From the NCBI GenBank assembly GCA_048939465.1, contig JBHLPL010000002.1, positions 5,608 to 37,607 of the forward strand: a DNA stretch of 32,000 bases, written 5' to 3'. The notes beneath the pieces were generated by a model, which saw only the letters and a list, made by a program, of their open reading frames with translations, searched no databases and had not been told where the DNA came from. The position numbers and the translations under genes are program-made. How positions within the stretch are numbered: position 1 is the stretch's first letter; each line of letters opens with the position of its first letter. Below are positions 1,272-31,404 of the stretch, piece after piece. The stretch is from Promethearchaeota archaeon (GTDB lineage Archaea; Asgardarchaeota; Odinarchaeia; Odinarchaeales; JBHLKK01).

Positions 1272-1621
1272 CTATCTTCCGCAAGAAGACTTTACCCGAG
1301 AGGGCGGAGATGAATCAGATGTGTTTAGATGATTTTTCGGTAATTAAGCTTTGGTTAGGACGGTCTCAAAGAAGAGGAAGCCTGCCTAACGGCATGGGCG
1401 TAAAACTCGGTCTGGAAGAGCAGGTCTTGCGAGTATAGCCTGCTTGACAGGGCTGCCAGGCGTCTGTGGCATAGCATGGAGTTAACCAGCCCGAGGCCTG
1501 ACCTCCTGTGTATCCGTCAATTCGGAGCACGGAAACCTCCCCTCTTTGAGGCCGAAGTGTCCTCAGACGCGTAAGACAGAGAGAGGGAGGAAGCTCCTTG
1601 GGAAAGCTAGGGGGAGTTCAC
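1272..1621 (+). mobile_element. 350-bp non-autonomous IS200/IS605-like mini-element (copy C1): left-end hairpin, reRNA-like body, right end
   Basis: Preceded by TTTAT (1267-1271); degenerate left-end hairpin CTTTACCC-GAGA-GGGCGGAG (1290-1309); ends GAGGGAGGAAGCTCCTTGGGAAAGCTAGGGGGAGTTCAC, nearly identical to the end of the tnpB remnant at 31174; collinear with 2825-3175 (-). Confidence 0.75.
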
Positions 1622-1682
1622 AAATAGATTAGCCAGGCTATTGCCTCTAGGTCCTACGAATCATAAAAAAAGAGTGAGTAGC

Positions 1683-2780
1683 CTATTCCCATTTTATCTC
1701 TAAGCCCACTTTCCCTGCCTGCTTGGAAGTGAGCAGTTCCATGCCCTTATCAACATCCCTTATTGGTATTCTATGAGTGAATACCTGAGCTATCTTCTCA
1801 CGGAAGTTTGGAATCCTTAGCAATCCCTTTACCTGAAACCATGTTTCGAACATCAGTCTTCCAGTTATCCCATATATCTTTGCTGCTTTGAAAACCACCA
1901 GATTAGTAAAATCCAACTCAAAGGGACGATGATAGATCCCCAGTACGGAAGCTCTTCCCCCAGGAGTAAGTACTTCTAATCCCTGCCTCAAAGCGGAAGC
2001 TGCGCCCGACATTTCCAAGACAACATCGACTCCAACACCATCCGTTGCGTCCGTAATTACCTTGACAAGCTTGTCTCCTTCCTCCTTTGCGCTTAGAACC
2101 ATATCTGCCCCCATTTTTCTTGCCAGATCCAGCCTTATCCTATTGCTCCCACCTCCAACAGCAATGACTTGTTGGGCACCAAACGCCTTTGCAGCGGTTA
2201 TGGCCATAAGCCCAGTCGGACCAGTGCCAAAAATAGCAATATTCTTTCCAGCAATGTCCTCTACATTGCCTTTCGGAAGGAGCGTATGAACGGAATTTCC
2301 CAAGGGCTCTTGAACAGACATTAGAAATGGGTCTAATTTAGGATCATTTTTCCAAGCATTCCACTCTGGAAGAGAAAAATATTCCGCAAACACACCGTCT
2401 ATGTCAACACCAAGTATCTTCATATTTTGACAAACGTGCATCCGACCAGTCCTGCACTGATAATCCATGAAATCGACTATATGCGTTTCGGCCGATATTA
2501 GATCGCCAACCTGAAGGGATGTAACCTCCTTGCCAACTTCTACGACTTCAGCTGCGACCTCATGGCCAGGAATAAAAGGTATTCTTTTTATTCTCTGCTG
2601 TGCCCAATCATCCCATTCCCAGATATGAACATCGGTTCCGCAGATCGAAGAGGCTACTACTTTAGCGAGTACATCTCGTGATCCAATTCTTGGCATCCGC
2701 ACGTTATTGACGAGTTTAGCTCCGGGCCCTCTTTCTTTCTTCATCCAAGCATACATGGACTTACTCTCCCTAAAGCTCAT
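1683..2780 (-). CDS. tdh: L-threonine 3-dehydrogenase-like Zn-dependent MDR dehydrogenase
   Basis: 365 aa; ICGTDVH, GHE, AETHIV..YQCRTG..HVCQN, GTGPTG, GITGRLMFETW; upstream of kbl on the same strand. Confidence 0.85.
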   Translation of the reverse strand: MSFRESKSMYAWMKKERGPGAKLVNNVRMPRIGSRDVLAKVVASSICGTDVHIWEWDDWAQQRIKRIPFIPGHEVAAEVVEVGKEVTSLQVGDLISAETHIVDFMDYQCRTGRMHVCQNMKILGVDIDGVFAEYFSLPEWNAWKNDPKLDPFLMSVQEPLGNSVHTLLPKGNVEDIAGKNIAIFGTGPTGLMAITAAKAFGAQQVIAVGGGSNRIRLDLARKMGADMVLSAKEEGDKLVKVITDATDGVGVDVVLEMSGAASALRQGLEVLTPGGRASVLGIYHRPFELDFTNLVVFKAAKIYGITGRLMFETWFQVKGLLRIPNFREKIAQVFTHRIPIRDVDKGMELLTSKQAGKVGLEIKWE

Positions 2781-2824
2781 ATAAATGAACCAACAGAATG
2801 CAAACGATTCAATAACAGACAGAT

Positions 2825-3175
2825 GCAGACTAATCCCCGCTTTCGATGCAGGCTTCCTCTCTCTTTACCTCATCCGTCTGATGACACTTCGGCTTCTCAG
2901 AGGGGGTGTTCCTGTGCTTCGAATCTATGGCTGTCAAGGAGGGGGTCTCGGCGTTGGTTTACTCAAAACTGTGTCACCAGCAAGCGCAGCTTCGTATCAC
3001 GGTAGAGACCGGCAGGGTCCCCACTCTCTCGGACTGGGGGTTGTGCCCACTTCTTTGGGCAGCCTTCCTCCCTCCCGGGGAACAGTTCGCCAACCAATTA
3101 TGGCACAGTAGTATTATTTAAGATCAATGTAATTCATCTCGATCTGACAATATCTGATCTTCCTGTGGAAGAAAG
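2825..3175 (-). mobile_element. 351-bp IS200/IS605-like mini-element (copy C2), inverted homolog of C1
   Basis: 5' end CTTTCTTCCACAGGAAGA vs C1 CTATCTTCCGCAAGAAGA; internal GCCGAAGTGTCATCAGACG (2875-2893) vs C1 GCCGAAGTGTCCTCAGACG (1551-1569); collinear blocks throughout; right end more degenerate. Confidence 0.7.
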
Positions 3176-3208
3176 GAAAGACTTGGAGAGGTTGATTAGG
3201 GGGTCAAG

Positions 3209-3949
3209 ATGTTATTTACAGACATAGAAGGGAAAAGAATCCCTCTAGTATCAATAGGAACATCCCCATTCTTTGGGGCAGGGCAATTTGGCATAAAGGC
3301 GCTTTTTTGGAGACAGAAGTTCCTGCATAATCCGGAGGAAATGGCAAACCTAATGATGGATGCATATGATGCAGGAAGCAGAGGTGCACACATAATACCG
3401 CTGGGGAAGATTCCAGCGGCTGCAGGAATTGTAAAAGATCAATACTCTGAGTTCGTCGTGATCGGGAGCACTCCGCCTAATAATATCATGAAAGGAATCG
3501 AAATTCTTGAAAAGATGGATGCAAGGATCATCTTTGTACATGGGCAGATTGCGGACTTGAGAAGCAAGAATAAGCTTTCCGGTTTGCTAAGCGAGATCAG
3601 AAATGCTGGAGCCGTACCTGGGATAGCCACACATGAGCCCATAGAGACGATATCATTCATCGAGAACCAAGGACTGGATTGTCCAGCAATTCTGGTTCCC
3701 TTTAACAGCAAAGGTTACGCGATGCAAAACAAACCTCGACTTGAGAGAATGATCAATAGCTCTACCAGGTTTTTCATAGGGATGAAGGTACTCGCTGCAG
3801 GAAAAATAAGACCAAAAGCAGCATTCGAATATGTTGGAAAACACGGTAATATCTCTGCCGTGACAATAGGAATAACTACAAGTCAAGAAGCAAAAGAAAG
3901 CGTGCATTTCGCCTTGAAGTGTCTGAATTCAGGATCAAGGTTAAGGTAA
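3209..3949 (+). CDS. Conserved hypothetical protein, probable TIM-barrel / aldo-keto-reductase-like fold
   Basis: 246 aa clean ORF with SD-like GGGGG; alternating beta/alpha pattern; GMKVLAAGKIRP resembles the AKR-like C-terminal motif. Confidence 0.5.
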   Translation: MLFTDIEGKRIPLVSIGTSPFFGAGQFGIKALFWRQKFLHNPEEMANLMMDAYDAGSRGAHIIPLGKIPAAAGIVKDQYSEFVVIGSTPPNNIMKGIEILEKMDARIIFVHGQIADLRSKNKLSGLLSEIRNAGAVPGIATHEPIETISFIENQGLDCPAILVPFNSKGYAMQNKPRLERMINSSTRFFIGMKVLAAGKIRPKAAFEYVGKHGNISAVTIGITTSQEAKESVHFALKCLNSGSRLR

Positions 3950-3979
3950 TTCTGTTGCATTAAGAGTGCAACACAAAAT

Positions 3980-3994
3980 GAAAAGCTTAAAATA
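3980..3994 (+). promoter_or_regulatory. Putative BRE/TATA promoter of the rpoD operon
   Basis: GAAAAGC-TTAAAATA about 57 nt upstream of the rpoD TTG. Confidence 0.5.
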
Positions 3995-4050
3995 TGCTTC
4001 TTGCTTCTCCTTTATCCTATCACTAAAACGATGACTGTCGGTGTACAGAA

Positions 4051-4863
4051 TTGAAGATACGGATTCTTGAAAAAGACGATCAACACATCCAGTTTTACGT
4101 AGAAGGTATTGATCCAGCTTTCGCCAACTCTTTAAGGCGAATTATGATATCCGAAGTGCCGTCTATGACAATAGACGAGGTAATGATAGTCGAGAATACG
4201 TCTGCCCTGTTTGATGAAGTACTGTCGCACAGACTAGGATTAATCCCCATTGTAACCGATTTAGAGTCGTACGTACTTCCGAGTGAATGCGCATGCAACG
4301 GGTCTGGCTGTCCTCAATGCCAGGTCATACTGACCCTAAACAAAGAAGCAACAGAAGGCGGAATGACTGTCTACTCAGGAGACTTAGAATCGCAAGATCC
4401 TAAAGCGATTCCTGCAAGCGATAAGATACCAATAATCAGGCTGGCAAAAGGGCAACGACTGGTACTTGAAGCATATGCAAGGTTAGGAACCGGTCGAGAA
4501 CATGCCAAATATCAGCCAGTATCTGGCTGTTCTTACAGGTATAAGCCGATAATTGACATAGAACTGGACAAGTGTGAGGCATGTGAAGAGTGTGTCAAGT
4601 CATGCCCGAAGAATATTCTTCGTCAAGAGAATGGAACTCTCGTGTTGCACGATGCTTTAAGCTGTACTCTGTGCAAGTCATGTGTAGAATCCTGCGAATT
4701 CGATGCAATTCATATATCGTGGGATGAATCTACATTCATATTCAATGTCGAATCTACAGGAGTCTTACCACCGAGCAAGGTTGTTAAGAAATCAACCGAA
4801 ATATTGGAGAAAAAAGCAAGAGAATTCATAGAACTCGTGGGCGTAGCCAAGACGGAGAGGTGA
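4051..4863 (+). CDS. rpoD: DNA-directed RNA polymerase subunit D (Rpo3) with ferredoxin-like Fe-S insertion
   Basis: FANSLRRIMISEVP, HRLGLIP, GTGREHAKYQP, CxxCxxCxxxC twice; TTG start. Confidence 0.97.
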   Translation: MKIRILEKDDQHIQFYVEGIDPAFANSLRRIMISEVPSMTIDEVMIVENTSALFDEVLSHRLGLIPIVTDLESYVLPSECACNGSGCPQCQVILTLNKEATEGGMTVYSGDLESQDPKAIPASDKIPIIRLAKGQRLVLEAYARLGTGREHAKYQPVSGCSYRYKPIIDIELDKCEACEECVKSCPKNILRQENGTLVLHDALSCTLCKSCVESCEFDAIHISWDESTFIFNVESTGVLPPSKVVKKSTEILEKKAREFIELVGVAKTER

Positions 4864-4867
4864 GCAT

Positions 4868-5221
4868 ATGCCAAAACCTACAGGACCTACAGATCCAAAT
4901 CTGACGCATTTAATCATGAATCTGCGAAAAACCAAGAAAAGAATATGGCGGACAATAGCTGAACAGCTCCGAAAACCAAGAAGAACCAGAACAGCAGTCA
5001 ATCTGTCAAAAATCAATCGTCATACTGAGGAAGGCAATGTAGTCGTTATCCCAGGAAAGGTTTTGGGATCAGGCTTACTGAATCATAAGGTCTCCATCGC
5101 CGCACTGGTTTTCACAAAGCAGGCCAGAGAGAGAATAAAGGCCGCTGGGGGCGAATCTATTACCATAGAAGAACTAGTAAGTAGAAATCCAAATGGCTCC
5201 AGTGTTTTGATAGTGAAGTAA
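4868..5221 (+). CDS. rpl18e: 50S ribosomal protein L18e (eL18)
   Basis: PTDPNL, VNLSKINR, VVIPGKVLGSG. Confidence 0.96.
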   Translation: MPKPTGPTDPNLTHLIMNLRKTKKRIWRTIAEQLRKPRRTRTAVNLSKINRHTEEGNVVVIPGKVLGSGLLNHKVSIAALVFTKQARERIKAAGGESITIEELVSRNPNGSSVLIVK

Positions 5222-5234
5222 TGGAGGAGGACGA

Positions 5235-5681
5235 ATGGAAGGGCCCAAGATAATTGACGCTTCTGATTTGGTTCTAGGAAGACTAGCGAGCGTTGTTGCA
5301 AAACGCTTACTTGCAGGCGAGAGCATCGTGATAGTTAACGCGGAAAAGGCAGTGATAACAGGCAAAAAGACAAGCATTTTGGAGAGATACAGACAGAGAT
5401 TTGGAATTAGAACTCTTACTGCGCCTTGGAGGGGACCGCTTCATTATCGAAGGCCAGACAGATTTGTGAAAAGGACTATTAGGGGTATGCTTCCCTATAA
5501 AACCCCACGAGGAAGAAAGGCCTATAAACGTCTTCTGGTACACATAGGCATTCCAGATGGAGTTGAGGACAAAATGAAAGAAACGCTCCCTCAGGCATCT
5601 ATAGGGCGAACTAAGGGTAGGGGTATACGAGTTTACGAGTTGACCAGGGAATTAGGTTGGATTCCATCCGTGGAGGGGTAA
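5235..5681 (+). CDS. rpl13: 50S ribosomal protein L13 (uL13)
   Basis: [36 protein letters not shown]. Confidence 0.97.
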
Positions 5682-5685
5682 GAAA

Positions 5686-6090
5686 ATGACAAAAGTTCTT
5701 TTGGTTAGTGGAAAGCGGAAGACCGCGATTGCAAGAGCTACAATTCGCAAGGGCAAAGGAATGGTGCGAATAAACAATGTCCCGCTTCAGATCTATGGCT
5801 CTGAACTTGCTAGATCGAAGATTATGGAACCGCTGCTGATAGCAGGAGACGACATAACCAAGAAGATTGATATTCATGTAAGAGTCCACGGTGGAGGCTA
5901 TATGGGTCGGGCAGATGCTGTAAGAACCGCGATTGCGCGAGGACTGGAAAGCTGGTCAAAGGATGTCAAACTGAGAGAGAATTTCATTCGGTATGACAGA
6001 ACAATGCTTGTAGGCGATTCTCGAAGAACAGAACCAAAGAAATTTGGAGGACACAGCGCAAGAGCTAGAAAGCAGAAATCATATAGGTGA
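5686..6090 (+). CDS. rps9: 30S ribosomal protein S9 (uS9)
   Basis: [39 protein letters not shown]. Confidence 0.97.
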
Positions 6091-6255
6091 ACTGTCCTTA
6101 GCTTCCGCAAGGGATTTGCTCCCTCGCTCCTTGAAATGCCAACAGGTCTTCTTTCGGAGCGATGAACACTCTGTGACTGTGGTACAGCTGCGCTTTCGAT
6201 CACGCAACCTAAGAGCCTGTTACGCATATTAACTTCCTAGCTCCCAAGGTCATAG
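6087..6255 (-). mobile_element. Degenerate tnpB 3' tail plus right end (copy C4)
   Basis: Minus strand reads VNMRNRLLG (cf. INIGRRLLG at 31360) and ends GAGGGAGCAAATCCCTTGCGGAAGCTAAGGACAGTTCAC; terminal TTCAC overlaps the rps9 TGA. Confidence 0.7.
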
Positions 6256-6608
6256 ATCTTAACCTCAAAGACGAAGGGGATATTCAAACGCAATGGAATC
6301 CATCCCAACGCCTATGCCGAGGTCTTCTTGAGAAGGGCAGACGAAGCATGAATTGACGATTTCTTTTCACTTAGTTTTGGTTGGAGGTAAACTCCATTTC
6401 TTGGGGCTACTCCAGAATTGGTAATTTTCCCCTTCAAATCGCTAGGATCCTTTTTGCCTTACTTTGCGTTCAAACAGGGGCGACAAAAAGAGAAGCCTCG
6501 AAATTGAGACCGACAAAAAAGGCGCCTTAAATAAGCAATCTCTTAGGAGAATAGAAAAGCCGTACAATCATTTATTAGGATTCTTGAGGGGTCATAAATT
6601 AGTGGAGG

Positions 6609-6857: not shown

Positions 6858-6902
6858 CGAATCGCGTTTGCCGAGTGATTCCTTTTTGATTTGTCAAGAA
6901 AA

Positions 6903-7951: not shown

Positions 7952-8929
7952 ATGTCAAAGATCACTTTTTCGGCCCCAGGTAAGTGCATACTAACGGGAG
8001 AACACAGCGTTGTTTACGGCACGCCCGCTATAGTCACAGCCCTTGATATACGGGCGTATTCAGCAGCAGAACCAACAAATGACGATCAGATCACCATAAC
8101 AGGATCAAATCTCGGAATTACCGGCATCTTTCCTAATTCTCTTGAGGCTACACCAGAAGTCGATTCTAAGACATTATCGGTGCTTAAACCGATTTGGACA
8201 GCTTGCTGCAAGACACTTGAGAAAAAGAACAAGAAAGTTGGACTAAAGGTTGAGGTAAATTCTGAAATACCTCTTAGTGTTGGGCTCGGGTCTTCCGCAG
8301 CCATTGCTGTCTCATCAGTAGCCGCCGTCGCCCATGCTTCAGGCATTTCGCTTACGAAAGAAGAGATATCAAGCATTGCTTTTGAGGCAGAGAAAGTAGT
8401 GCATGGAACGCCTTCTGGAGTGGACAACTCTGTTGCAACCTTTGGGGGAGTCATGATGTACGAACAAGGAGAAATTGAGTACCTAGACGTTAAGAGTCCA
8501 ATACCACTAGTGATCGGAAACACGTTAAAGGAGAGAAACACCGGAGAGTGGGTAGAAAAAGTCCGACATCGTCACGACAGACACCCCACAGTGATCGATA
8601 GTGTGATAAAGGCAATAGCCGACCTAACTAGAAAGGCAAAGATTGCAATTATAAACGGCGATTTAAGAACTCTTGGAGAATTAATGGATATTAACCAAGG
8701 ACTGCTATATTCTTTAGGGGTTTCAACAGATGACCTAGACCGGTTAATTTATGTAGCACGTAAGGCAGGAGCGCATGGGGCGAAGCTTACGGGAGCCGGC
8801 GGGGGAGGATGTATAGTCGCACTCTCTTCTCATAAGAATCAGCATGCAATTGCTGCAGCTATAGGAAAGGCAGAAGGCGAGCCCATCATAACAAAATTCT
8901 CACAACAGGGAGTTAGAATTGAGAAATAG
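7952..8929 (+). CDS. mvk: Mevalonate kinase
   Basis: APGKCILTGEHSVVYG, PLSVGLGSSAA, HGTPSGVDN, GAKLTGAGGGG. Confidence 0.95.
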   Translation: MSKITFSAPGKCILTGEHSVVYGTPAIVTALDIRAYSAAEPTNDDQITITGSNLGITGIFPNSLEATPEVDSKTLSVLKPIWTACCKTLEKKNKKVGLKVEVNSEIPLSVGLGSSAAIAVSSVAAVAHASGISLTKEEISSIAFEAEKVVHGTPSGVDNSVATFGGVMMYEQGEIEYLDVKSPIPLVIGNTLKERNTGEWVEKVRHRHDRHPTVIDSVIKAIADLTRKAKIAIINGDLRTLGELMDINQGLLYSLGVSTDDLDRLIYVARKAGAHGAKLTGAGGGGCIVALSSHKNQHAIAAAIGKAEGEPIITKFSQQGVRIEK

Positions 8930-10829
8930 ACCGATTATTCTAAAACTAGGCGGTAGTGTAATCACAAGCAAGAATGAATTATTTAAGGCAAAACCTGAAG
9001 TTGTAGACCAGATTGCCAAAGAGGTCGCGTCAGCAAAGCGTAAAAATCTGGTTATAGTCCATGGCGGCGGATCGTTTGGTCACCCCGTGGCCAAAAAATA
9101 TAAAATACATAAAGGCTTCCGCCACCCAAATCAAATAATGGGATTTTCAGAAACACACAAGGCTATGGAACAACTCAATCAAATAGTAATCGGCGCATTC
9201 CTAAGACAGAGAATCCCTGTTATTTCAATTCCTCCATCAAGCTGCGTCACCACAAACCGTGGCATAATTACAGTGTTCAACATTCCGGTAAGGGAGTACC
9301 TTAAGAAGGGCTTTATCCCCGTGATCTATGGAGATGCAGTCATAGACGAAGAATGGGGCATGGCTATCCTTTCGGGAGACCAGATTGTGAAATATCTCGC
9401 GATGCATCTAGAAGCCAGAAGAGTAATTTTCGGTGTTGATGTTAATGGAATCTTCACAGCAGACCCTAAGCAGAACCAAGATGCAAAACTCATTCGCAGG
9501 ATCACACCTAGGAATTTTGATCAGATTCTGTCCAGCTTAGAGACCAGTGATGTGGGCGATGTGACTGGTGGGATGGCGGGAAAAATGAAAGAACTCGTAG
9601 AAATAGCAAAGAGGGGCATAGAAGTAAGCATTATAAACGCTACCAAATCTAAAAATGTGGAATCCGCGTTAACAGGAAAAGATGTTTCTGGTACGCATGT
9701 TAGTGGTTGGGAACGCAAAGTGAAAAAAGCGCCAGTAGAGCCAAGAAAACTGGATCACATAAGGATGTGTTTGGAGAAATCTGTTCAAGCAAGAAATAAG
9801 ACTGCTGGACTGGAAGATGTTGAGCTAATCCATAATGCAATACCTGAAATATCAAAAAAGGATGTTAATCTTGGTGTAAACTTCCTCAATTATGATCTAG
9901 ACGCGCCAATCATTATTGCAGCAATGACTGGGGGGCATCCTGTTGCAAAAAGGATTAATGAGACATTAGCGAAGGCATCAAAAGAATTGAATATTGGATT
10001 GGGTGTTGGAAGTCAGAGAGCTGCCCTAGAAGACCCGGAGCTAGCTGATACATTCAGAGTTGTCCGTGAAGTCGCACCGGAGGCGTTCATCATAGGAAAT
10101 CTCGGTGCTCCCCAGCTCTCCAGAGGGTACGATTTAGAGGAGATAGAAAAAGCCATAAAGATGATAGACGCAAATGCAATAGCTGTGCACCTAAACACAT
10201 TGCAGGAAGCAATCCAACCGGAAGGAGAAACTGATTTTTCAGGGGTTGTTAGTGCATTTAGGAGGATTTCGGATAAGATTGATATCCCAGTAATCGCAAA
10301 AGAGACGGGTGCAGGGATAGCAAGGGAGGAAGCAGAGACTCTTGAAAAGGCTGGAGTTACTGCTATCGATGTAGGGGGTGCGGGGGGAACTAGCTGGGCG
10401 GGAGTGGAAACGCATCGGGCAGCTGAGAGCGGGGACGGGCTGAGAACTCGCATAGGAAGGACTTTCTGGGACTGGGGCATACCTACTGCAGTAAGTACAT
10501 TCGAGGTAGCTCAGTCAACAGGACTGCCAGTAATAGCTACCGGCGGAGTACGCTCAGGTCTTGACGCAGCAAAGCTAATAGCTCTGGGCGCAAGTGCCGT
10601 TGGCGTTGCCTTCCCGTTGCTCCGACCGGCTTATGGAGGGGATGTAAACGAGGTGATTAATACTCTCGATACAATGATAGAAGAACTAAGAATTACCATG
10701 CATTTGGTTGGAGCTAAGACAATCGACGAATTGAAAAGCGCAAGGGCAATTATCAGTGGAAAGACTGGTCGATGGCTTCAGCTCAGAGGCTATGAAGTTT
10801 CCGGATTCGCAAATCGAATAATAGAATAG
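8919..10829 (+). CDS. ipk-fni: Fusion of isopentenyl phosphate kinase and type 2 isopentenyl-diphosphate isomerase
   Basis: N-domain LKLGGSVIT, HGGGSFGH, SGD, DVTGGMAGK; C-domain RKLDHI, MTGG, GVGSQR, KETGAG, GGTSWA, ATGGVRSG; one 636-aa ORF. Confidence 0.9.
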   Translation: MRNRPIILKLGGSVITSKNELFKAKPEVVDQIAKEVASAKRKNLVIVHGGGSFGHPVAKKYKIHKGFRHPNQIMGFSETHKAMEQLNQIVIGAFLRQRIPVISIPPSSCVTTNRGIITVFNIPVREYLKKGFIPVIYGDAVIDEEWGMAILSGDQIVKYLAMHLEARRVIFGVDVNGIFTADPKQNQDAKLIRRITPRNFDQILSSLETSDVGDVTGGMAGKMKELVEIAKRGIEVSIINATKSKNVESALTGKDVSGTHVSGWERKVKKAPVEPRKLDHIRMCLEKSVQARNKTAGLEDVELIHNAIPEISKKDVNLGVNFLNYDLDAPIIIAAMTGGHPVAKRINETLAKASKELNIGLGVGSQRAALEDPELADTFRVVREVAPEAFIIGNLGAPQLSRGYDLEEIEKAIKMIDANAIAVHLNTLQEAIQPEGETDFSGVVSAFRRISDKIDIPVIAKETGAGIAREEAETLEKAGVTAIDVGGAGGTSWAGVETHRAAESGDGLRTRIGRTFWDWGIPTAVSTFEVAQSTGLPVIATGGVRSGLDAAKLIALGASAVGVAFPLLRPAYGGDVNEVINTLDTMIEELRITMHLVGAKTIDELKSARAIISGKTGRWLQLRGYEVSGFANRIIE

Positions 10830-11725: not shown

Positions 11726-11827
11726 TTGCTCCACTCTCTGCCATTTTAGGTAGACGATTCTAGGACTATTTATTTGTCCTTTTAACTCTATCGGCAAAAA
11801 TCTGAAGTCTCATCTTGACCATCTCAA

Positions 11828-11860
11828 GGAGACTCCATCCGATAGGGCGGAGTAGTTTAC
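11828..11860 (+). mobile_element. Isolated IS200/IS605-like right-end hairpin
   Basis: GGAGACTCCATCC-GATA-GGGCGGAGTAGTTTAC; hairpin matches 19006-19026 and terminal GGAGTAGTTTAC matches 18746-18757; TTTAC overlaps the ndk TAA. Confidence 0.7.
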
Positions 11861-12796: not shown

Positions 12797-14601
12797 TTGA
12801 TAAGACAACCCATTATATCGTTCTTGGGCCACATCGATGTGGGCAAAACAAGTCTCCTAGATAAGATAAGAGGAACAGTAGTTCAGCTTCGAGAGGCAGG
12901 GGGTATAATGTAGTAGCATAGACTACTCCATGCTAGACCCAGCATATCGGAGCTAGCTTCCTGCCCACTTCCGTTATAACAGCCATAGCAAAAGATCTTC
13001 TAAATCAATTCAAGATCAAAGTTACAATACCAGGATTGCTGGTTGTTGATAGCCCTGGGCATGCAGCATTTATGAACTTGAGAAGAAGAGCCGGGAGCGT
13101 CTGTGACATCGCCATTCTTGTGATTGATGTACTGGCAGGCTTTCAGCCTCAAACACACGAGTCCGTCAACATCCTGAAGGAGAGAAATACTCCGTTCCTG
13201 GTGGCGGCAAATAAGATAGATAGGGTTCCCGGATGGAAAGACAAAGAATCAACATCGTTCTTAGAATCTGTAAAGAAACAGGAAGAGTTTGTTAGGAAGA
13301 ATCTTGATCAGAAAATATACGAAATCGTTGGGGCCTTTTCAACAATAGGTTTTGAATCTGAAAGATTTGACAGAGTGGGAGATTTTACTAAGACCATCGC
13401 CATTGTGCCTACAAGTGCAAGAACTGGAGAAGGGATTGCAGAACTCCTGATGGTAATTGCAGGACTTACCCAACAATACATGATGAAACGTTTGGAGATT
13501 TCATCTGAAGGGGGCAGAGGAACAGTTTTGGAGGTCAAGGAGGAACCGGGGCTGGGAATTACCGTTGACACTGTTATCTATGATGGAGTGATCCACAAGG
13601 GAGACACCATCGTGGTAGGGAGCTTGGGTGATCCTATTGTAACTAAGATACGGGCAGTTCTGCTGCCAAAACCCCTTGATGAGATACGCGACCCCCGCGA
13701 ACGATTTGATCCTGTAAAGGAAGTTCAAGCAGCTGCAGGTATCAAGATAGCAGCACCTGCTCTTGAAGGGGCTATTGCTGGAGCCCCTTTGATTGTCGCG
13801 AACACAGAAAAGGAGATTGAAGAAGCAAAGAACGAAATATTGAGTGAGATTGAAAAGATCAGGATATCGACAGACAAAACAGGGATAATACTTAAGGCAG
13901 ACACGCTAGGTTCTTTAGAAGCTATTCTAAAATACTTCCAGGATCAAGGGATTGCAGTCAGAATAGCCGACGTTGGGGATATTTCAAAAAGAGACATAGT
14001 TGAGGCTGAAGTCGTTAAGGAACTTGATCCGCTTTCAGCGATTGTTCTTGGATTTAATGTCAAAGTACTGCCTGATGCCAAAGAGGAATCGGTTAAACAT
14101 GAAATTCCGATACTCCAAAACAGGATAATTTACCGATTGTTTGAGGAATATGACAATTGGCTATTTGAGAGGAGGGAAGAGCGAAAGAGAGAAGCATTGA
14201 AGACAGCCGTAAAACCAGGAAAGGTAAAAATCATTCCAGAATATATTTTTCGGCAAAGTAAGCCCGCGATCGTCGGTGTTGATGTTCTTAGCGGGCAAAT
14301 AGTCTCTCGGGTCAACTTGATAAAAGAGGATGGGAGCAGAGTAGGAACAATTCTTCAGATACAGGACAAAGGAGAAGTAATTCCTATTGCCAAGGCGGGA
14401 CAAGCTGTCGCCATTTCAATCAGGGGAGCCACCGTTGGTCGACAGATAAATGAGAATGACGTTCTATATGTCGATATGCCAGAAAGAGATGTCAGACTCT
14501 TCAAAGAACGTTTCAGAGACGAACTCTCTGTGGGTGAGTTGGAAGCTTTAGATGAATTAATCGAGATAAAGAGGAAATCAGATCCTACATGGGGTGCATA
14601 A
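12797..14601 (+). CDS. infB: Translation initiation factor aIF5B (IF-2); two exons 12797-12907 and 12937-14601, 591 aa after splicing
   Basis: Exon 1 (TTG) [36 protein letters not shown] joins exon 2 [19 protein letters not shown]; the ORF track shows only the part from 13036. Confidence 0.95.
12908..12936 (+). other. 29-nt BHB-type intron in infB mRNA
   Basis: Outer helix GGG/CCC, central helix GGUA/UGCU, bulges UA^A and AG^A, inner stem UG.AGUAG/CUACU.CA; contains in-frame TAG TAG; removal restores GGI-TQHIG. Confidence 0.88.
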
Positions 14602-18328: not shown

Positions 18329-18712
18329 TTGTCCATGAAAATTGACGTTATTTCGGAGAAGAAAAATCCCTTGCTAGGAAGAAACGAGATATATTTCGAA
18401 ATCTCTCATCCGAATAAAGGAAGTCCAATGAGGAAAAACATAAGGGAAAATTTGGCCTCGAGATACAAGGTGGATCTAGATTTGGTCTTCATACGTAGAC
18501 TTATGCCGGTTGCGGGAAAGCAGAAAATTAAGGGAACTGCAAGAATCTACGAAGATAAGGATCGAGCCGGACTTGTTGAAGCTAAGCACATAGTAAGCAG
18601 AAATCAGACAGAAGTAGAAGAAAAAGAGGAAGTAGAGAAGGAGAAGCCGAAGGAGAAGCCGAAGGAGAAGCCGAAGGAGAAGCCGAAGGAGAAGCCGAAG
18701 GAGAAGGGTTAG
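18329..18712 (+). CDS. rps24e: 30S ribosomal protein S24e with a (KEKP)n C-terminal tail
   Basis: KNPLLGRNE, GTARIYED, HIVSRN; conserved gene order. Confidence 0.94.
   Translation: MSMKIDVISEKKNPLLGRNEIYFEISHPNKGSPMRKNIRENLASRYKVDLDLVFIRRLMPVAGKQKIKGTARIYEDKDRAGLVEAKHIVSRNQTEVEEKEEVEKEKPKEKPKEKPKEKPKEKPKEKG
18637..18706 (+). repeat. Perfect 12-nt tandem repeat (GAAGGAGAAGCC) x5 plus a 10-nt partial copy
   Basis: Read directly; encodes KEKP repeats. Confidence 0.97.
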
Positions 18713-18745
18713 AAGAAACTTGGGGAGTAATAGGTGGTAGTTTCT

Positions 18746-19044
18746 GTAAACTACTCCTCCCTCGCAGAAGGGGCTCATGACTGTGCTTGACCGCAATTCC
18801 CTCCCGAGCTCCGGTTTCATCACAAGTCAAATCAAGGGGCGATTTGCAGCGCCCCAGCCCGGTGATCCGTGCATAGCGCCGAGCTTAAGAGTTTTCCTCG
18901 CCTATCCTCGCACGGGTCATTGACCGTTTCCGCCTCCAAGAGAGGTGTCCCTTCAGACCTATTAGTATATATAGCACAAACTCAGTTAAAGATCCCTCAA
19001 TTCCTCTCCGCCCTTTCGGACGGAGTCCCCCAGAGGTGGTTCCT
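18746..19044 (-). mobile_element. About 300-bp IS200/IS605-like mini-element (copy B)
   Basis: Left-end hairpin ACTCCGTCC-GAAA-GGGCGGAG; TATATATA spacer; right end GAGCCCCTTCTGCGAGGGAGGAGTAGTTTAC; collinear with 22841-23145 (+). Confidence 0.8.
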
Positions 19045-19242
19045 ACGAGCGTCAAAGAATATTATACGGTATCAAAGGACGGAAAAATTGCTAGATTGAA
19101 GAAGAATTGTCCCAGATGCGGACTTGGCACATTCATGGCAGAGCATTCTGATCGATGGAGTTGCGGCAAGTGTGGTTGGACTGAATTCAAGAAAGGGGAG
19201 ATTGAAGACCACGAAAAAGAGGAAAAACTAAATCAGTCTTAA
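19036..19242 (+). CDS. rps27ae: 30S ribosomal protein S27ae; start GTG 19036 or ACG 19045
   Basis: [30 protein letters not shown]. Confidence 0.95.
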
Positions 19243-22276: not shown

Positions 22277-22840
22277 TCATCGAGCCGAGAAGTTCTTCTT
22301 TAACCAATCTGCAAACTTGTACAAAACCTTCTTTCTGTGAGAAAGTTTGTTTTTTTCATCAAAACCCATTTCAGCATAGGTTCTACCGTCACCCTCCAGC
22401 GGGACAAAAATAGGATCGTATCCCCAGAGTTTACCCCGTTCTTCTTCGGAAATTGTACCTTCTACATTGGCAGAAATGCATGTAGATACTCGATCATGAG
22501 AGAAGGCGATAACTGACTTAAAGACTGCCTTCCTTGTTGCGACTCCCTCCATCAACCTTAGAATCCCCTTATTCCCTATAGTTTTGAAGACGTACGAAGA
22601 GTACGGGCCAGGAAAGCCGTTAAGTGCTTCGATAAACAGCCCGGTATCTTCCACAAAAACTGGTTTTTTGATCTTTTTAGAAACTAGAGACACACTGTAT
22701 GAGGCTATTTTCTCTAGACTTTCATGTTGAGGTTCAATCCTCTCGATATCCAGATGTTCAATCTCAAAGCCTATCTTTCCCAATATTTCAGATGCCTCTC
22801 TTATCTTATTCTTATTACTTGTAGCAAAAAGCAGCTTCAT
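22277..22840 (-). CDS. rdgB: dITP/XTP pyrophosphatase (Ham1/RdgB)
   Basis: FATSNKNK, EDTGLFIEALNGFPGPYS, WGYDPIF, KNKLSHR. Confidence 0.95.
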   Translation of the reverse strand: MKLLFATSNKNKIREASEILGKIGFEIEHLDIERIEPQHESLEKIASYSVSLVSKKIKKPVFVEDTGLFIEALNGFPGPYSSYVFKTIGNKGILRLMEGVATRKAVFKSVIAFSHDRVSTCISANVEGTISEEERGKLWGYDPIFVPLEGDGRTYAEMGFDEKNKLSHRKKVLYKFADWLKKNFSAR

Positions 22841-23145
22841 TTGATCGCCTCGAGGAAACTCCGACCAAAAGGACGGAGAGGGATTAAGGAGTCGATGAAT
22901 GCTATTGGGACATACGCACCAATAGATTTGAAGTCACACCTCTCTTCGATGTGGAAACAGCTAATGACGGATGAGGGTGGGCGCCATGGACTGATAGCCA
23001 CTGTATCGCCTGACGCTATATGCAGATTACTGGGTTCAGACGCTTTGGACTTGCTGCCAATCTGGCCTGTGATGCGACCAAAGCCCATTTGGGAATTAAG
23101 GTCCAGCATAGTCATAAACTCCTTCACTAAGATGGAGTATTTCAT
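22841..23145 (+). mobile_element. 305-bp IS200/IS605-like mini-element (copy A) inserted at the bud32/rdgB overlap
   Basis: Follows TTCAT (22836-22840) and ends in TTCAT (23141-23145); left-end hairpin ACTCCGACC-AAAA-GGACGGAG; collinear with copy B. Confidence 0.82.
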
Positions 23146-23771: not shown

Positions 23772-23783
23772 CTTGATCCTCCC

Positions 23784-24789
23784 CTAATCTCTCCAGACAA
23801 TATCAACTTCATCGAGTCGCCATTTTGGCTTTACGCTACTATTTTTTAATTTCAAAACCTGTCCATGTTTGTACTGTAACATCCCTGTCCATGCTATCAT
23901 CGCTCCATTGTCCCCAGAGAATCTGTTCGAGACCACACGAAACTTTGCATTATGCTCCTTAGCAATGGATTTAAGCATCTCCTGCAGTCTTTTGTTTGCA
24001 GCTACACCTCCCGTTAATAGAACAGCAGGCTTTTCAGTGTGTGCGAGGGCACGCTCCGTAACTTCGGTCAACATTGAAAATGCAACTTCCTGTAAGCTGA
24101 AACAAAGATCTTCGATTCTGTTCTCATGAAGTTTGTTTGTTGCAGCAGTTAGGAGACCGGAATAGGATAAGTCCATACCTTTGACAGTGTAGGGTAAATC
24201 AATGAACCGCTTGCCTTTCTTTGCTAACCTTTCTATCTTGGGGCCACCTGGATGTTTGAGTCCTGCTGAACGCGCAAAAGCATCGAGCAAATTACCTATG
24301 GGAATATCTAGGGTTTCCCCAAACACACGATACCTACCTCCGTCATAGGCCGCGACTATGGTATTGCCACCTGAAACATACAAAGTAACCGGATCTTCCG
24401 TATTGGAAGCAAGGCGCCCTATCTCTATATGAGCGACACAGTGATTCACACCGACGAGCGGGACTTCAGTAACTAACGCCAAAGCTCGAGCAGCAACAGC
24501 AGCAGTCCTAAGACAGGGACCTTTCAGCAAACTGTTGGCAGAGTTTTAAACCGGGTCCCTGAGAGAATGCCACGAATTCAATGTCGCTCAGGCTTATCTT
24601 TGCTTCTTCTACTGCTCTTACAATAGTTTTCTCTGCAACCCGTACATGGTGTTGGGCCGCTTCTCGAGGATGGATGCCACCCGTTTCTGGTTGATACACG
24701 CTTTCAACACTCGTAAGGATTCTTCCTTCAGGCGTTACTATGCCAACACTGAACGTGTGGGCAGTTCCCTCAATACCCAAACCCACCAC
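23784..24789 (-). CDS. kae1: tRNA t6A synthase Kae1; two exons 24789-24548 and 24522-23784, 326 aa after splicing
   Basis: LGIEGTAHTFSVG, GGIHPREAAQHH, AFSQGPGL|GPCLR, VNHCVAH, VSGGNT, GGVAAN, DNGAMIA; the ORF track splits it into two frames. Confidence 0.95.
24523..24547 (-). other. 25-nt BHB-type intron in kae1 mRNA
   Basis: 8-bp outer helix CAGGGACC/GGUCCCUG, central helix CGGU/GCUG, bulges UU^A and AA^A, inner stem AAACU/AGUUU; removal restores GPGLGPCLR. Confidence 0.92.
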
Positions 24790-26366: not shown

Positions 26367-26441
26367 TGTAAATCATCACCTCAAATATCTTTTCTTATAT
26401 GTAATTGGTTTTTTAAAAAATACTTTTCCTCGTATAAAATT

Positions 26442-27020: not shown

Positions 27021-27071
27021 AGAAATCTCCTTTTTTCTCTTAGAAAGAATTGAAGGCAGTTAAATACTCTT

Positions 27072-27305
27072 TTGAGGACTTGGGTGGTAAAGAATGTTGT
27101 TCGAAGTCATCTGAGAGTTGACTGGAGGGGCCATCCTAAGGGTTGGCGAGAAGCCAACTCCCCCCTGAAGTTGAGTTTTCAGACTCTGATGCCAACTAAA
27201 TATGGGTGGCATTGGGAAAGGCAATTGTCAGCGCTATTGAAGCAAGCTAAGTCTCAGTAAAGAGGCTCTTTCATCCACTTGACGGGGGTCTGAGTAGTTC
27301 TGTGC
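27072..27305. other. Structured intergenic segment, possibly another IS-derived or ncRNA element
   Basis: Hairpins GTTGGC-GAGAA-GCCAAC and ATGCCA..TGGCAT; right-end-like GGGGGTCTGAGTAGTTC; no clear alignment to the other copies. Confidence 0.3.
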
Positions 27306-27354
27306 ATTATACTTGGCCTCTGATAGAAGGCCTCCTGCCACAGTAGAAGGCAGC

Positions 27355-28107
27355 TTATATAGCGGGAAGGACATTCCACAGTGCCTCAAAAAAAAGATTG
27401 AACACATTTATGAACTCTTGACGACTTGTATATACTCCTATCATTTCCCAGTGCTTGGACGGGGTGGCTATTAAGACTTCAGTTCTATCTGCAGACACCA
27501 ACCATAGGTCCCTCTTATTGTATCTCCTTATCAGAGCACCAAGCCTTTTGAGCCTGGCTATAGCCTTCGCATGCGTTTTTGAATTATTCTCAATATAGGA
27601 AGCCACTCTGATGTCAGCAGTATTAGGAATACCTTCAAGCAAAGGTATCTTAATATGATGAAACTCTTGAGCAATTATTAAGACTTCACTTTTAATATTG
27701 GCGAGCATCTCTTCCGTTTTATGCGTCAGTTCCTTTTTGCCTTTAAATAGCCAGAAGAGATCTGCTTGATTTATGGGGCGTTTTTCCCGTTGGTAGTACT
27801 CGGACAGATGGTGGATCAAAGTGCTCATTTCATCTTTAAGTCTATTAACAGTCGAGGCCAATGCTCTTTCGGGATTAGTAGGACGAAACCTTCGAGGCCT
27901 GCTAGGCTGAATCTCAACTAGCTCCTTGTTGCTGAGAGATTTTATTGTATCATAAATCCTAGATTGAGGGACGTGGCACCAATTGCTTATTTCACTTGCA
28001 GTTCCTGAGCCAAGACGCAGAAGCGTAGCGTAAACTTCCGCTTCGTATTCCGTTAAGCCCAGCCTTTTGAGTCCTTTAATGATGTCTGAAGGATGTCTCT
28101 TATCCAA
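27355..28107 (-). CDS. TrmB-family transcriptional regulator
   Basis: LKRLGLTEYEAEVY..L, ASEIS...VPQSRIYDTIKSL..KELVE...PRRF.P.NP. Confidence 0.9.
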   Translation of the reverse strand: MDKRHPSDIIKGLKRLGLTEYEAEVYATLLRLGSGTASEISNWCHVPQSRIYDTIKSLSNKELVEIQPSRPRRFRPTNPERALASTVNRLKDEMSTLIHHLSEYYQREKRPINQADLFWLFKGKKELTHKTEEMLANIKSEVLIIAQEFHHIKIPLLEGIPNTADIRVASYIENNSKTHAKAIARLKRLGALIRRYNKRDLWLVSADRTEVLIATPSKHWEMIGVYTSRQEFINVFNLFFEALWNVLPAI

Positions 28108-28415
28108 GTTATCGACTCCTTTAAGGCCATCAATCAGATACCAGAGTCTACCTGATAAGCTTAATCATTTCTTTGATTTCTTTTCAGAATCCGTCAATGT
28201 TTTTCCTTGCATTCAGATCTGGTTACATTAACTATAACACGCGAAGTTCAACGGTCTGTGGTCAGAAAATAAATTTGTCAGATAAGAGGTTTTCATCATC
28301 TCTTATTTTCAGATAACCATCTTACCGTCATTCGACTTATCTAGATCGCCATGTCAAAAAAAGGTTTCTATTTGGGAAAAAGGATAGGTTTTTTGCGGGA
28401 AGAGACCAATCAGAT

Positions 28416-29759
28416 TCATTTTCCAGCTACCTGAACATCTTCAAATCTCACATAAGGCGACACACAGCTGAACGCGGTAGCTCCAGAGATTATTTCTGCC
28501 TTATTCGAAATCCCTGAGATTTTGTTGATCATTTCGAAAAAGTCTCCAGACACAAGTCCGCCTTTAACAGCGTCCCCAATTTTGCCATTCTTAATATGAA
28601 ACGCGTTTCTTATTTCAGCAGAGAATTGACCTGAAGTTGGACTGGGGTTTAGCCAGCTAAACGAGTCCAAAAGCAATCCACTCTCTGTTTCCCCTATTAA
28701 TGCTTCCAAAGATTTGTTACCTGGTAAGATTCTTAGATTGGTCGCCTGATTCTTAGGCTTCATTTTGAACTTATTCTCCACATAGTAAGCTACGAATTGC
28801 TGGCGAATCCCATTTCCCGTCGACCTCTGACCATACTGAGAACCTAGATATTCATCGTAAAGGTAATTCTTGAAAACTCCTTTTTCAATAAGTTGAGTCG
28901 TGGCTTGGGGATTTCCTTCATCATCAAAGGGTGAGGACTGCATACCATAAGGAAATAGTCCGTCATCTAATACATTTAGGATTTCAGATGCGATTCTCTC
29001 ATTTGGTTTAAACTTCGAGAAACCTTCCTTCCGAGCCAGCCCAGTTGCGTGAACACCGATTGTGGGAACTAGTCCGTCACAAACCATCGCCGGAGAGAAG
29101 ATTATGGTCATTTTTCCTGTTTCAGGCTCTACTGCACGGAGCATTGAAATTGCGTTTTTTGACCATTCACTTATAAGCTTGGGAGGAGCATCTTGAACTC
29201 TTCTTGCGTACCTCATAGTCCAGTATTCGCCGATCTTGTTTGCTTCTTTGGCTTTTATAGCTATCTCCATAAACATGTAAGTCTCGTCCTTCGTTAGATT
29301 CACACCTTGACTATTCACGATCTCAGTCGTCATATTGTAACATCTTACCTTTCCAAAGGTAACTTCAGCCCCTTTCGGAAGATCTTCTTGCATCTGAGTA
29401 GTGTATTCTTCAATCACGGCTTCCGGCTCATTCCTTATTCTTGGATCTACGATTTCAACAGATTCTGTCGGGCGTGGAACAGGAAACGAGAAGTCAGGAA
29501 CCTCATTGATCTTCGCAATATCAAGAGCGGCGTCGACAGAGCGAGCAATGGACTCTTTTTTCAAACCGTATGAAAAAGCAAGTCCAACTCCTCCTTTGTG
29601 TGCAATCCTTACAGAATAGCCCACAGGTCTGGATGAGTTAATAAGAACGGTTTTCCCCTGTCTTATATGAGCTTCGGTAATCGTGGGTCTTTGAAGAAAG
29701 ATTTCGAAATGTTCGATCTTTTTATCATGAATATCTTTCAGTATAGGTTCATAGCTCAT
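28416..29759 (-). CDS. pmbA: TldE/PmbA family protein
   Basis: 447 aa; SSPFDDEG, LIEKGVFKNYLYD, STGNG, GLVSGDF; downstream partner of tldD. Confidence 0.88.
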   Translation of the reverse strand: MSYEPILKDIHDKKIEHFEIFLQRPTITEAHIRQGKTVLINSSRPVGYSVRIAHKGGVGLAFSYGLKKESIARSVDAALDIAKINEVPDFSFPVPRPTESVEIVDPRIRNEPEAVIEEYTTQMQEDLPKGAEVTFGKVRCYNMTTEIVNSQGVNLTKDETYMFMEIAIKAKEANKIGEYWTMRYARRVQDAPPKLISEWSKNAISMLRAVEPETGKMTIIFSPAMVCDGLVPTIGVHATGLARKEGFSKFKPNERIASEILNVLDDGLFPYGMQSSPFDDEGNPQATTQLIEKGVFKNYLYDEYLGSQYGQRSTGNGIRQQFVAYYVENKFKMKPKNQATNLRILPGNKSLEALIGETESGLLLDSFSWLNPSPTSGQFSAEIRNAFHIKNGKIGDAVKGGLVSGDFFEMINKISGISNKAEIISGATAFSCVSPYVRFEDVQVAGK

Positions 29760-29762
29760 TAT

Positions 29763-31136
29763 TCACCCTCCAGAGACTATACCCTCATCTACCCTAATTG
29801 GAGGTCCGCCGGAAGTGACTCCCACAAAATCCTCGTAACCTTTCCCACAGGTTCCTGGATCAAGCCGGAAATTCTTTCCGACAGCTGAGACCTTCTTAAG
29901 TAAGTCCAACACATTTCCAGATAGTGCTGCAGCTCGCAGCAGCTGAGTAGTCTCTCCTTCTTCAATTAAGTATGCCTTCATTGAACCTACCTGTATCCCG
30001 CCTCCCAGCGGGTCTTCCATTCCATGGCTGCCCTTAACCAGATAAATGCCGTGTTTTACATCTTCTATCAGCTCTTCCCAGCTATGATCGCCTTTCTCAA
30101 AGTAAGTGTTGGACATTCGGACGTAAATCCTTCTGCTGAAATCCTGCGCTCGTCCATTTGCTGTCACTTCTGCATCCATCATAGATGCAGTCTCTCGTGT
30201 ATGTATAAAGCCCTTAAGAACACCATTCTCGACTAAGATATTCTTCCGTGATTTGACTCCTTCGTCGTCGAAGTAATACGATCCGTATGCTCCCTCGAAT
30301 GCGCTATCGTCGCTGAGAGTTACCAACTCAGAGGCTACTTCCTTTCCCAAATAGTCTGACAAAAAGGAACGATTTCTAAGGACCTGATCTGCCTCTAACC
30401 CGTGACCAAAGCTCTCATGAGCAATAAGACCTGCCATTTGTTGATCTAAAACGACTGGAAATCTGCCGCTAGGGGTAGGTTTTGCGTCTAAAAGCTGAAT
30501 AGCTCCCTCCGCAGCTTCCTTGACAGCTCTTTCCTCATCGATTGATTTCACTACCTCATACCCGCCTTGTAATCCGCGCGAAAAATAATCATGTTGTACT
30601 TTTGCTCCTTCTCTGGCAATAGCAACGATCACTAATCGGATAACAGGGATTTTTTGCTTTAGGTAACTACCCTCAGAATTGACAACCGTTTTTTCTATCA
30701 AGGAGTGAGACACGTCTGTCCTGGCAGCAATGATTTTCGGATCAAATTGTTTAGTTGAATTGAAGAGCCCTCTCACTTTGCCGAGTTTCTCTTCTATTCC
30801 GACATCTGAGAACCGTATTTTCATTGGGTATTCTTTTTTAAGAGTCCACCCTTCACAAGGCTCATACGACGTTTTGGTTGTGGGTTTGAATGAAACTAGT
30901 TTTTCGACTTCTCTCAGAACTGTTTCCTTATCTAGCTGACTTACACCGGTGGAAAGCCATTGTTCTCCCTTCAGCACTCTTATAGAAATCCCTTCTGATA
31001 TGCCACTAGATATTTCTTCTTCAGTCATGCTCTTGAAGATTGAAAGGCTGTCCCTTCTCTGATATCTTGCGTCAAAATAATCACACCTACCAGAGGCTTT
31101 ATCTATAATTAGGTCAAGCAAATCGTCTGGATTCAT
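29763..31136 (-). CDS. tldD: TldD family metalloprotease
   Basis: HESFGHGLEAD (HExxxH), FDDEG, TANGRAQ, VRMSNTY, GTCGKG..V.V.SGGP; ATG 31136 follows GAGGG. Confidence 0.92.
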   Translation of the reverse strand: MNPDDLLDLIIDKASGRCDYFDARYQRRDSLSIFKSMTEEEISSGISEGISIRVLKGEQWLSTGVSQLDKETVLREVEKLVSFKPTTKTSYEPCEGWTLKKEYPMKIRFSDVGIEEKLGKVRGLFNSTKQFDPKIIAARTDVSHSLIEKTVVNSEGSYLKQKIPVIRLVIVAIAREGAKVQHDYFSRGLQGGYEVVKSIDEERAVKEAAEGAIQLLDAKPTPSGRFPVVLDQQMAGLIAHESFGHGLEADQVLRNRSFLSDYLGKEVASELVTLSDDSAFEGAYGSYYFDDEGVKSRKNILVENGVLKGFIHTRETASMMDAEVTANGRAQDFSRRIYVRMSNTYFEKGDHSWEELIEDVKHGIYLVKGSHGMEDPLGGGIQVGSMKAYLIEEGETTQLLRAAALSGNVLDLLKKVSAVGKNFRLDPGTCGKGYEDFVGVTSGGPPIRVDEGIVSGG

Positions 31137-31173
31137 AATCTTACCCTCAGTGTCTCTAATGAACAACACCCTA

Positions 31174-31404
31174 GTGAACTACCCTCCAGCTTTCGCAAGG
31201 GGCTTCCTCCCTCGAACTCTGAATCGTTATTGGGTCTCCCTCCGGACAGGCGAACACTAGGGAGGTTTGGAGCTGGTTCACTTCCCCTATCATTGCAGCC
31301 ACAGAATGCGAAACGGCCCTGCTCCTAAGCGTATAACCTAAGAGCCTTCGACCTATATTAATTGCTCCATTCAAATCATGATTATGCTCTAAGCCACAAT
31401 CCTT
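31174..31404 (-). pseudogene. tnpB: 3' fragment of an IS200/IS605 tnpB gene plus right end (copy C3)
   Basis: KDCGLEHNHDLNGAINIGRRLLGY = end of Zn finger plus RuvC-III motif; ends GAGGGAGGAAGCCCCTTGCGAAAGCTGGAGGGTAGTTCAC. Confidence 0.85.

Follow-up and report, generated by a model that had tools for sequence, protein, structure and literature searches.

The DNA analyzed here (the window, G000:C69:5608-37607) is a 32-kb stretch of a 1.96-Mb, 152-contig assembly of an Asgard archaeon (G000) and carries a compact set of information-processing genes. These encode the RNA polymerase subunits RpoD and Rpo7, the ribosomal proteins L18e, L13, S9, S2, L7Ae, S6e, S24e, S3Ae, and S15, the translation factors aIF5B and aIF2-gamma, and, among other products, NDK and Kae1/Bud32. 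Seven repeats, e1 to e7 (Table 1), are dispersed over the window. They are very probably palindrome-associated transposable elements (PATEs), i.e., gene-less, non-autonomous deletion derivatives of IS200/IS605-type insertion sequences, which belong to two families and are of mixed age. A first-pass annotation had marked seven positions as ends of elements or elements, and all seven lie on or inside real copies, as judged by nhmmer matches, ends, and flanks. At positions 1272 and 22841 the element begins immediately behind its target motif, positions 6087, 18746, and 31174 are right-end termini, position 2825 is the eroded terminus of e2, and position 11828 falls within the 47-nucleotide (nt) element e4.

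The families were defined by repeat detection and alignment followed by BLAST and iterated nhmmer searches over the whole assembly. The repeats at all seven sites are related and fall into two diverged families: famA, with lengths of approximately 350 nt in subfamily A1 and approximately 310 nt in subfamily A2, and famB, with approximately 300 nt. Short forms of 42 to 180 nt are present besides the full-size repeats. nhmmer returned 67 matches for famA and 57 for famB, which merged into 76 loci covering 17.6 kb (roughly 0.9% of the assembly), and the window copies scored 31 to 326 bits against the family hidden Markov models (HMMs) (E 5e-8 to 8e-98). The window contains 7 loci, compared with a genome mean of 1.24 per 32 kb (Poisson P ~3e-4), and is the densest stretch among the long contigs. 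Two congeners, G001 and G002, whose orthologous genes are approximately 80% identical to those of the window, were used for comparison. Several famA copies in G002 stop at contig ends, and in G000 the tnpB gene that is the parent of famB is distributed over two contigs (G000:C70:3-926 and G000:C55:5738-6043), the ends of which overlap by 25 identical residues. Because the assemblies break at repeats, the copy counts are lower bounds and young, identical copies may be missing.

Table 1. Putative PATEs of the window, with the bases found at the position of the target motif, the right-end terminus, and the state of the orthologous sites in the two congeners (window coordinates)
Copy	Coordinates	Strand	Form	HMM score	Target motif position	Right-end terminus	Putative guide	Sites in G001 and G002
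e1	1272..1621	+	full-length famA1, 350 nt	326 bits, top famA score in the genome	TTAT, 1268-1271	GTTCAC	flank 1622-1641	absent in both
e2	2825..3175	-	degenerate famA1	181 bits	TTTC	2825, eroded		absent in both
e3	6087..6340	-	shortened famA2, ~254 nt	92.5 bits	mutated	6087-6092; complement GTGAAC gives TGA stop of the S9 gene (5686-6090)		absent in both
e4	11814..11860	+	terminal-only famB, 47 nt, without scaffold		CTCAT, 11809-11813	11855-11860; complement gives TAA stop of the NDK gene		empty in both
e5	18746..19044	-	full-length famB, 299 nt	290 bits	CTCGT, 19045-19049 (complement strand)	18746	complement of 18726-18745	absent in G001; G002 site at a contig end
e6	22841..23145	+	old, degenerate famB	218 bits	TTCAT, 22836-22840	23140-23145, mutated to TTTCAT; complement gives TGA stop of the Bud32-type kinase gene		occupied in both
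e7	31174..31433	-	famA2, 260 nt, deletion near the left end	101 bits (HMM positions 147-352)	CTAT, 31434-31437 (complement strand)	31174, 5 nt upstream of the annotated GTG start of the TldD/PmbA gene		absent in both

The origin of the repeats was traced through their ends. The first ~70 nt of famA are the reverse complement of the last ~70 nt of the first famB model, and one end module is therefore common to both families. Contigs C2 and C70 have this module immediately in front of tnpB, and contig C105 has it in front of tnpA-tnpB, which identifies it as the transposon left end. The opposite end of famB (161 nt) matches C55:5721-5885, which consists of the last ~49 tnpB codons plus the 17 nt up to the right-end terminus. 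In line with this, e5 can be aligned to contig C55 over the 3' end of tnpB and the right end, and tblastn found TnpB C-terminal remnants of 24 to 40 residues in six famB copies, among them e5 (24 residues, 18813-18884). famB thus consists of a left end, a tnpB 3' end, and a right end, and its right part is, by sequence homology, the segment in which TnpB elements encode their omegaRNA, also called right-end element RNA (reRNA). For famA, only ~83 nt of the left end and ~35 nt of the right end match the C2 element. No TnpB remnant was found in famA copies by tblastn with the three TnpB proteins of the genome as queries, and their translations contain no TnpB-like peptide, all three sense frames being full of stops. 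Across 7 genomes of the class, famA was found only in the three genomes of this genus, and the candidates for a famA parent in G002 run out at contig ends. All window elements, with lengths of 47 to 350 nt, are too short for a transposase and contain no intact open reading frame (ORF). The first-pass annotation had reported neither tnpA nor a full tnpB in the window. This held: Pfam-based searches and tblastn gave only the 24-residue TnpB tail in e5. A derivation of the repeats from IS200/IS605 is supported as well, and their ends are homologous to those of tnpA/tnpB elements of the same genome.

Near-terminal palindromic hairpins are present at both ends, and neither end is an inverted copy of the other, i.e., there are no terminal inverted repeats. 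In the family alignments, the left-end hairpin is of the type CTCCGTCC-GAAA-GGACGGAG, and the right-end hairpin precedes GTAGTTTAC or GTAGTTCAC. In the left-end hairpin, the loop reads GAGA for e1 and GAAA for e5; famA right ends also have GAAA, and the loops of e4 and e6 are GATA and AAAA, respectively. Hence, the GNRA-type loops that had been noticed before are present in several hairpins (e1, e5, and the famA right ends) but not in all of them. The earlier view that the copies keep the right-end/reRNA portion applies to famB, but not in the sense that the right end alone is kept, because all seven copies retain the left-end terminus and hairpin; moreover, e4 consists only of fused termini, its left-end start and hairpin being joined directly to the right-end terminus GTAGTTTAC. 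The copies can be read as a target motif followed by a left end with one or two hairpins and a TATA-like box, a structured segment of 150 to 250 nt (in 6 of the 7 copies), and a right-end hairpin with the terminus GTTCAC or GTTTAC. Element e1 has all these parts (left-end hairpins, the TATA-like sequence TTTAGAT, scaffold, and right end). Beyond the terminus of e5, we observed that the flank 18726-18745 resembles another right-end terminus of famB that faces the other way (GGTGGTAGTTTCT vs GGAGTAGTTTAC). Terminus and flank form a tail-to-tail palindrome, which could be the remnant of an older copy or a chance hairpin.

In the element orientation, the copies are in nearly all cases preceded by TTAT (famA) or TTCAT (famB), which we refer to as the transposon-adjacent motif (TAM). 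The junctions are conserved (TTAT|CT... and TTCAT|CT... on the left, ...GTTCAC| or ...GTTTAC| on the right) and the flanks are unrelated. The empty site of e4 could be read base by base in both congeners, as ...TCAT|GTTAGA... in G002 and ...TTAT|GTGAGA... in G001: ...T(C/T)AT joins the right flank directly, and the window differs by an insertion of exactly 47 bases that did not duplicate the target. This TAM-adjacent insertion without duplication is the mode of IS200/IS605 elements. Searches of metagenome contigs for the empty-site junctions of e5 and e1 gave 0 exact matches each, in a collection that may not include this species. Read on the complementary strand, the target motifs (ATAA, ATGAA) and the right-end termini (GTGAAC, GTAAAC) contain a stop codon in the same register. 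As a consequence, a protein is not altered by an insertion placed exactly on its stop codon, as seen at the S9, NDK, and Bud32 genes of the window; the Pfam match of S9, for instance, extends to the final residue of the protein. In the genome as a whole, ORFs of 80 or more residues take their stop codon from 12 of the 46 right ends. The frequent antisense position of the elements at gene ends is thus explained by the stop codons in the complements of the target motifs. Element e2 sits in the divergent spacer (2781-3208) between an alcohol dehydrogenase (ADH) gene that starts at 2780 and the ORF at 3209. The orthologous spacer in G001 and G002 has only 19 to 34 nt and carries a ATATAAAA box, the complement of which contains TTAT and at which e2 was inserted. 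The promoters of ADH and ORF 3209 must now lie at or inside the ends of the element.

Comparison with the congeners gives the age of the copies. Neither congener has e1, e2, e3, or e7 at the orthologous site (in the case of e1, between the aminotransferase and ADH genes), and e4 and e5 are likewise lacking wherever their sites could be compared (Table 1). G001 and G002 each have copies of their own at other places. These differences show past mobility, not which enzyme was responsible for it. The only copy in common is e6, which is found at the same TTCAT in all three species and whose scaffold carries different deletions, ~115 nt being gone in G001 and the whole right half (~190 nt) in G002. 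Such decay by deletions is the behaviour of neutral DNA. The copies are of mixed age, with e2, e3, e6, and e7 eroding and e4 reduced to a bare fused end. We also considered e1 and e2 as the ends of a composite transposon carrying the ADH gene, which was rejected because both congeners have ADH between the same neighbours without the elements.

We then analyzed the RNA structure, the promoter, and the protein partners of the elements. The consensus fold of the famB right part has 32 pairs, with 91.7% of the cells paired and 11 pairs changed on both sides, and 0 of 500 shuffles reached the observed pairing or covariation score, although kinship of the copies can inflate these figures. The predicted folding energy is -20.8 kcal/mol on the tnpB-sense strand compared with -6.7 kcal/mol on the opposite strand, and the alignment contains 114 G-U cells vs 25 A-C cells. 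Strand bias and G-U excess are consistent with a structure that is read on the tnpB-sense strand. The left end contains a TATA-like box, which is TTTAAAT and nearly invariant in famA, TTAAAT-like in famB, and weak or degenerate in e5 and e6. Among the public sequencing runs listed for this genome, which come from mangrove and sediment samples, none is an RNA run. The gene inventory called for in the first-pass annotation, made by Pfam-based searches, gave one intact-looking Y1 tnpA (PF01797, E 7.5e-37), on contig C105, and three full tnpB genes (C2, C70/C55, and C105); compatible tnpA and tnpB genes are thus present outside the window. The C2 TnpB aligns end to end with the ISDra2 TnpB (E 1e-60), and the C2 and C70/C55 proteins have the RuvC Asp, Glu, Asp triad and the zinc-finger cysteines. 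Judging from these residues, the genome encodes a TnpB that is predicted to be competent as a nuclease. The C105 TnpB (G000:C105:1539-2837; locus L003:568-1848), which is encoded beside the sole tnpA, has a C-terminal extension of ~45 residues and Gly-Asp at the position of the RuvC-II Glu, where the alignment is ambiguous; this protein may possibly have lost nuclease activity. The lack of a compatible TnpB, named at the outset among the refuting observations, does not hold for famB, for which there is the C70/C55 protein, and may or may not hold for famA, for which a parent tnpB was not found.

These components suggest how the elements would be maintained. Acting in trans, the single Y1 TnpA of C105 would mobilize the copies in the form of single-stranded circles. 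In the intact copies (e1 and e5), the left-end promoter could transcribe the scaffold into the flank, which would yield an omegaRNA whose guide is the flank itself. A TnpB acting in trans (for famB, the product of the C70/C55 gene) would then cut the empty donor site after excision, and recombination would restore the element. Donor-site cutting followed by restoration through recombination corresponds to the model of selfish retention put forward by Meers et al. 2023 (PMC10055086). The same work states that PATEs 'often encode omegaRNAs' that are acted on in trans by the TnpB of other elements, and the use of TnpB by gene-less elements for their own retention is thus an idea already in the literature. 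Every testable defining feature of PATEs was found in the window elements, and MITE/PATE elements (MITE, miniature inverted-repeat transposable element), which the first-pass annotation had named as its alternative, are the best reading, the copies being of mixed age.

Several results weigh against the assignment of the copies to PATEs that retain an omegaRNA scaffold. No tnpB-bearing parent was found for the ~230-nt interior of famA, either in this assembly or in the 7 genomes of the class. In the famA fold, 89.7% of the cells are paired and the shuffle maximum is 89.7%, i.e., there is no excess over the control. No Rfam model matched, whether the window was searched at the gathering threshold or five element and parent loci at a permissive E-value. 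Because famA has no detectable parent, the term omegaRNA is used for this family by analogy, while it is supported by homology for famB. In addition, the copies are old, as their divergence within the genome is high (median pairwise identity 57% in famA and 71% in famB, with a maximum of 82% to 86%), which gives no sign of recent transposition.

The same divergence bears on whether the copies are wholly inert. It is possible, though on balance rather unlikely, that all seven are dead relics that neither yield a functional omegaRNA nor remain mobilizable. No two copies are more than 86% identical, the TAM positions of e2, e3, e5, and e7 are mutated, and e5 and e6 have degenerate TATA-like boxes. 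Deletions erode e6 in all three species, and the assembly is left with a single tnpA. However, the scores of e1 and e5 are the highest, or close to the highest, of their families, both copies have all family-consensus helices, the structure is retained on the sense strand, and a cognate-looking TnpB with an intact triad is available for famB. Moreover, young, identical copies may have been lost to assembly breaks at repeats.

Two further explanations give the copies a role in the host, for which we found no indication. In one of them, e1 and e5 would be transcribed from the left-end promoter and taken up in trans by a TnpB, perhaps the C105 variant whose RuvC-II site is altered, and would modulate the abutting translation-related genes through flank-directed guides or antisense read-through, besides serving their own retention. 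We consider this very improbable; if true, it would represent a host-relevant, transposon-borne regulatory layer in an Asgard archaeon. Also extremely improbable in our view is a reading, built on the guide repertoire of the first-pass annotation, in which the copies form a domesticated set, kept by the host as scattered guides on a possibly nuclease-dead, TldR-like TnpB that regulate or protect neighbouring essential genes. Such a role might be suggested by the fact that 4 of the 7 copies point toward the 3' end of a convergent gene (S9, NDK, S24e, and Bud32), but this antisense arrangement is accounted for by target motifs with stop-codon complements. It might also be suggested by the Gly-Asp that the C105 TnpB has where the other two TnpBs have the RuvC-II Glu; yet this gene is part of an ordinary tnpA-tnpB element and the alignment at the Glu position is ambiguous. 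The fold retained in the famB scaffold would fit a guide RNA, but the loci lack conservation: the congeners are without five of them, and at the sole common locus, e6, the scaffold has been lost in both relatives. The guides, finally, are nothing but the local flank, with no other TAM-adjacent match in the genome. When the 20-nt flanks of 46 right ends were compared with the genome, only partial matches of 14 to 18 nt were obtained, none of them with TTAT or TTCAT upstream. Four window guides, taken as 18-mers, had 0, 1, 3, and 0 exact matches in the viral contigs of IMG/VR, none with a TAM upstream, and by a rough estimate this number of viral matches is at chance level. The proposed repertoire with a host role is therefore not supported, and the copies are better read as complete, two-ended, non-autonomous transposons that are absent at congener sites and have guides made of their flanks only. 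That the repeats are an independent family of structured non-coding RNA genes, or repetitive extragenic palindromic (REP)-like repeats, with no relation to transposons is hardly credible: their diverged copies of constant length with conserved helices and the missing Rfam match would suit it, but homology links their ends to tnpA/tnpB-bearing elements, a remnant of tnpB coding sequence persists in the right part of famB, insertion is TAM-adjacent with an exact empty site, and presence varies among congeners.

Other features were noticed in the genes around the elements. The aIF5B gene is split by a 29-nt insert (window 12908-12936, +) between the conserved motifs ...REAGGI and TQHIGAS...; the frame shifts across the insert, which contains short inverted repeats and looks like a micro-intron of the tRNA type (bulge-helix-bulge). 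The Kae1 (TsaD) gene lies in two overlapping frames (window ~24508-24545, -), the first of which ends in ...VAFSQGPGL plus extra residues, while the second resumes at GPCLRTAAVAARALA. Here, the conserved GPG-L/GPCLR motif is interrupted by an insert of ~30 nt, possibly another micro-intron. At the end of the S24e gene (window 18625-18708), approximately six tandem copies of a 12-nt unit (GAAGGAGAAGCC) encode a repeated tail rich in Lys, Glu, and Pro. Lastly, a single ORF of 636 residues (window 8919-10829), directly after a GHMP kinase gene, joins a domain of the amino-acid-kinase family (isopentenyl phosphate kinase type) with a flavin mononucleotide (FMN)-dependent dehydrogenase domain similar to type 2 isopentenyl diphosphate isomerase (IDI), and it appears to be a fused gene of the mevalonate pathway.

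Altogether, an Asgard archaeal lineage is found to carry ~76 PATE loci derived from IS200/IS605 elements, the importance of which beyond annotation is small. PATEs have already been described, and the Asgard copies are real, well delimited, and ordinary. Such loci should be masked or annotated, lest they be mistaken for new RNA genes. The copies are natural cases of gene-less elements that retain a TnpB guide-RNA scaffold, and the stop-codon complements of their target motifs let them sit exactly on gene ends without harm.

TldR proteins are nuclease-dead, TnpB-like repressors with adjacent guide RNAs. They combine a TnpB-family protein with a guide of the omegaRNA type in a host role, which is what had been proposed for the window. 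Unlike them, the window elements have no conserved locus and no guide matching a distant host target, and the genome has no clearly dead, transposon-free tnpB gene. ISDra2 has the target motif TTGAT, whereas the window elements follow TTAT or TTCAT. The scaffold sequences are also unrelated at the DNA level to those of ISDra2, and no Rfam model matches the window scaffolds. Agreement with the ISDra2 TnpB and its omegaRNA/reRNA (PDB 8H1J, 8EXA) lies in the full-length alignment and D-E-D triad of the C2 TnpB, and in the RNA-coding position of famB, which overlaps with the 3' end of tnpB and runs no further than the right-end boundary. The PATE-like and tnpB-only ISGst elements of Geobacillus stearothermophilus (PMC10055086) are bacterial and backed by small-RNA data and assays, and the window copies are far more diverged from one another. 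Both sets of elements are non-autonomous, share their left and right ends with tnpB elements, have one candidate tnpA acting in trans, and follow the same TAM logic. A further close parallel is archaeal: PATEs were defined in 2011 in Haloquadratum walsbyi and other haloarchaea (Dyall-Smith et al. 2011, PMC3119063). The window elements differ from these in their Asgard host, with other end sequences and target motifs, and in that secondary insertions by small mobile repeats were not seen in the window copies. They resemble them in having no terminal inverted repeats, near-terminal palindromes related to IS605-type elements, no target duplication, heterogeneous and diverged families, and forms with a C-terminal tnpB remnant. 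The likeness extends to the smallest copies, since the Haloquadratum PATEs include terminal-only forms of 52 bp (PMC3119063), and e4, with its 47 nt, is of the same kind as these ~50-bp forms, which arise by deletion between the end hairpins.

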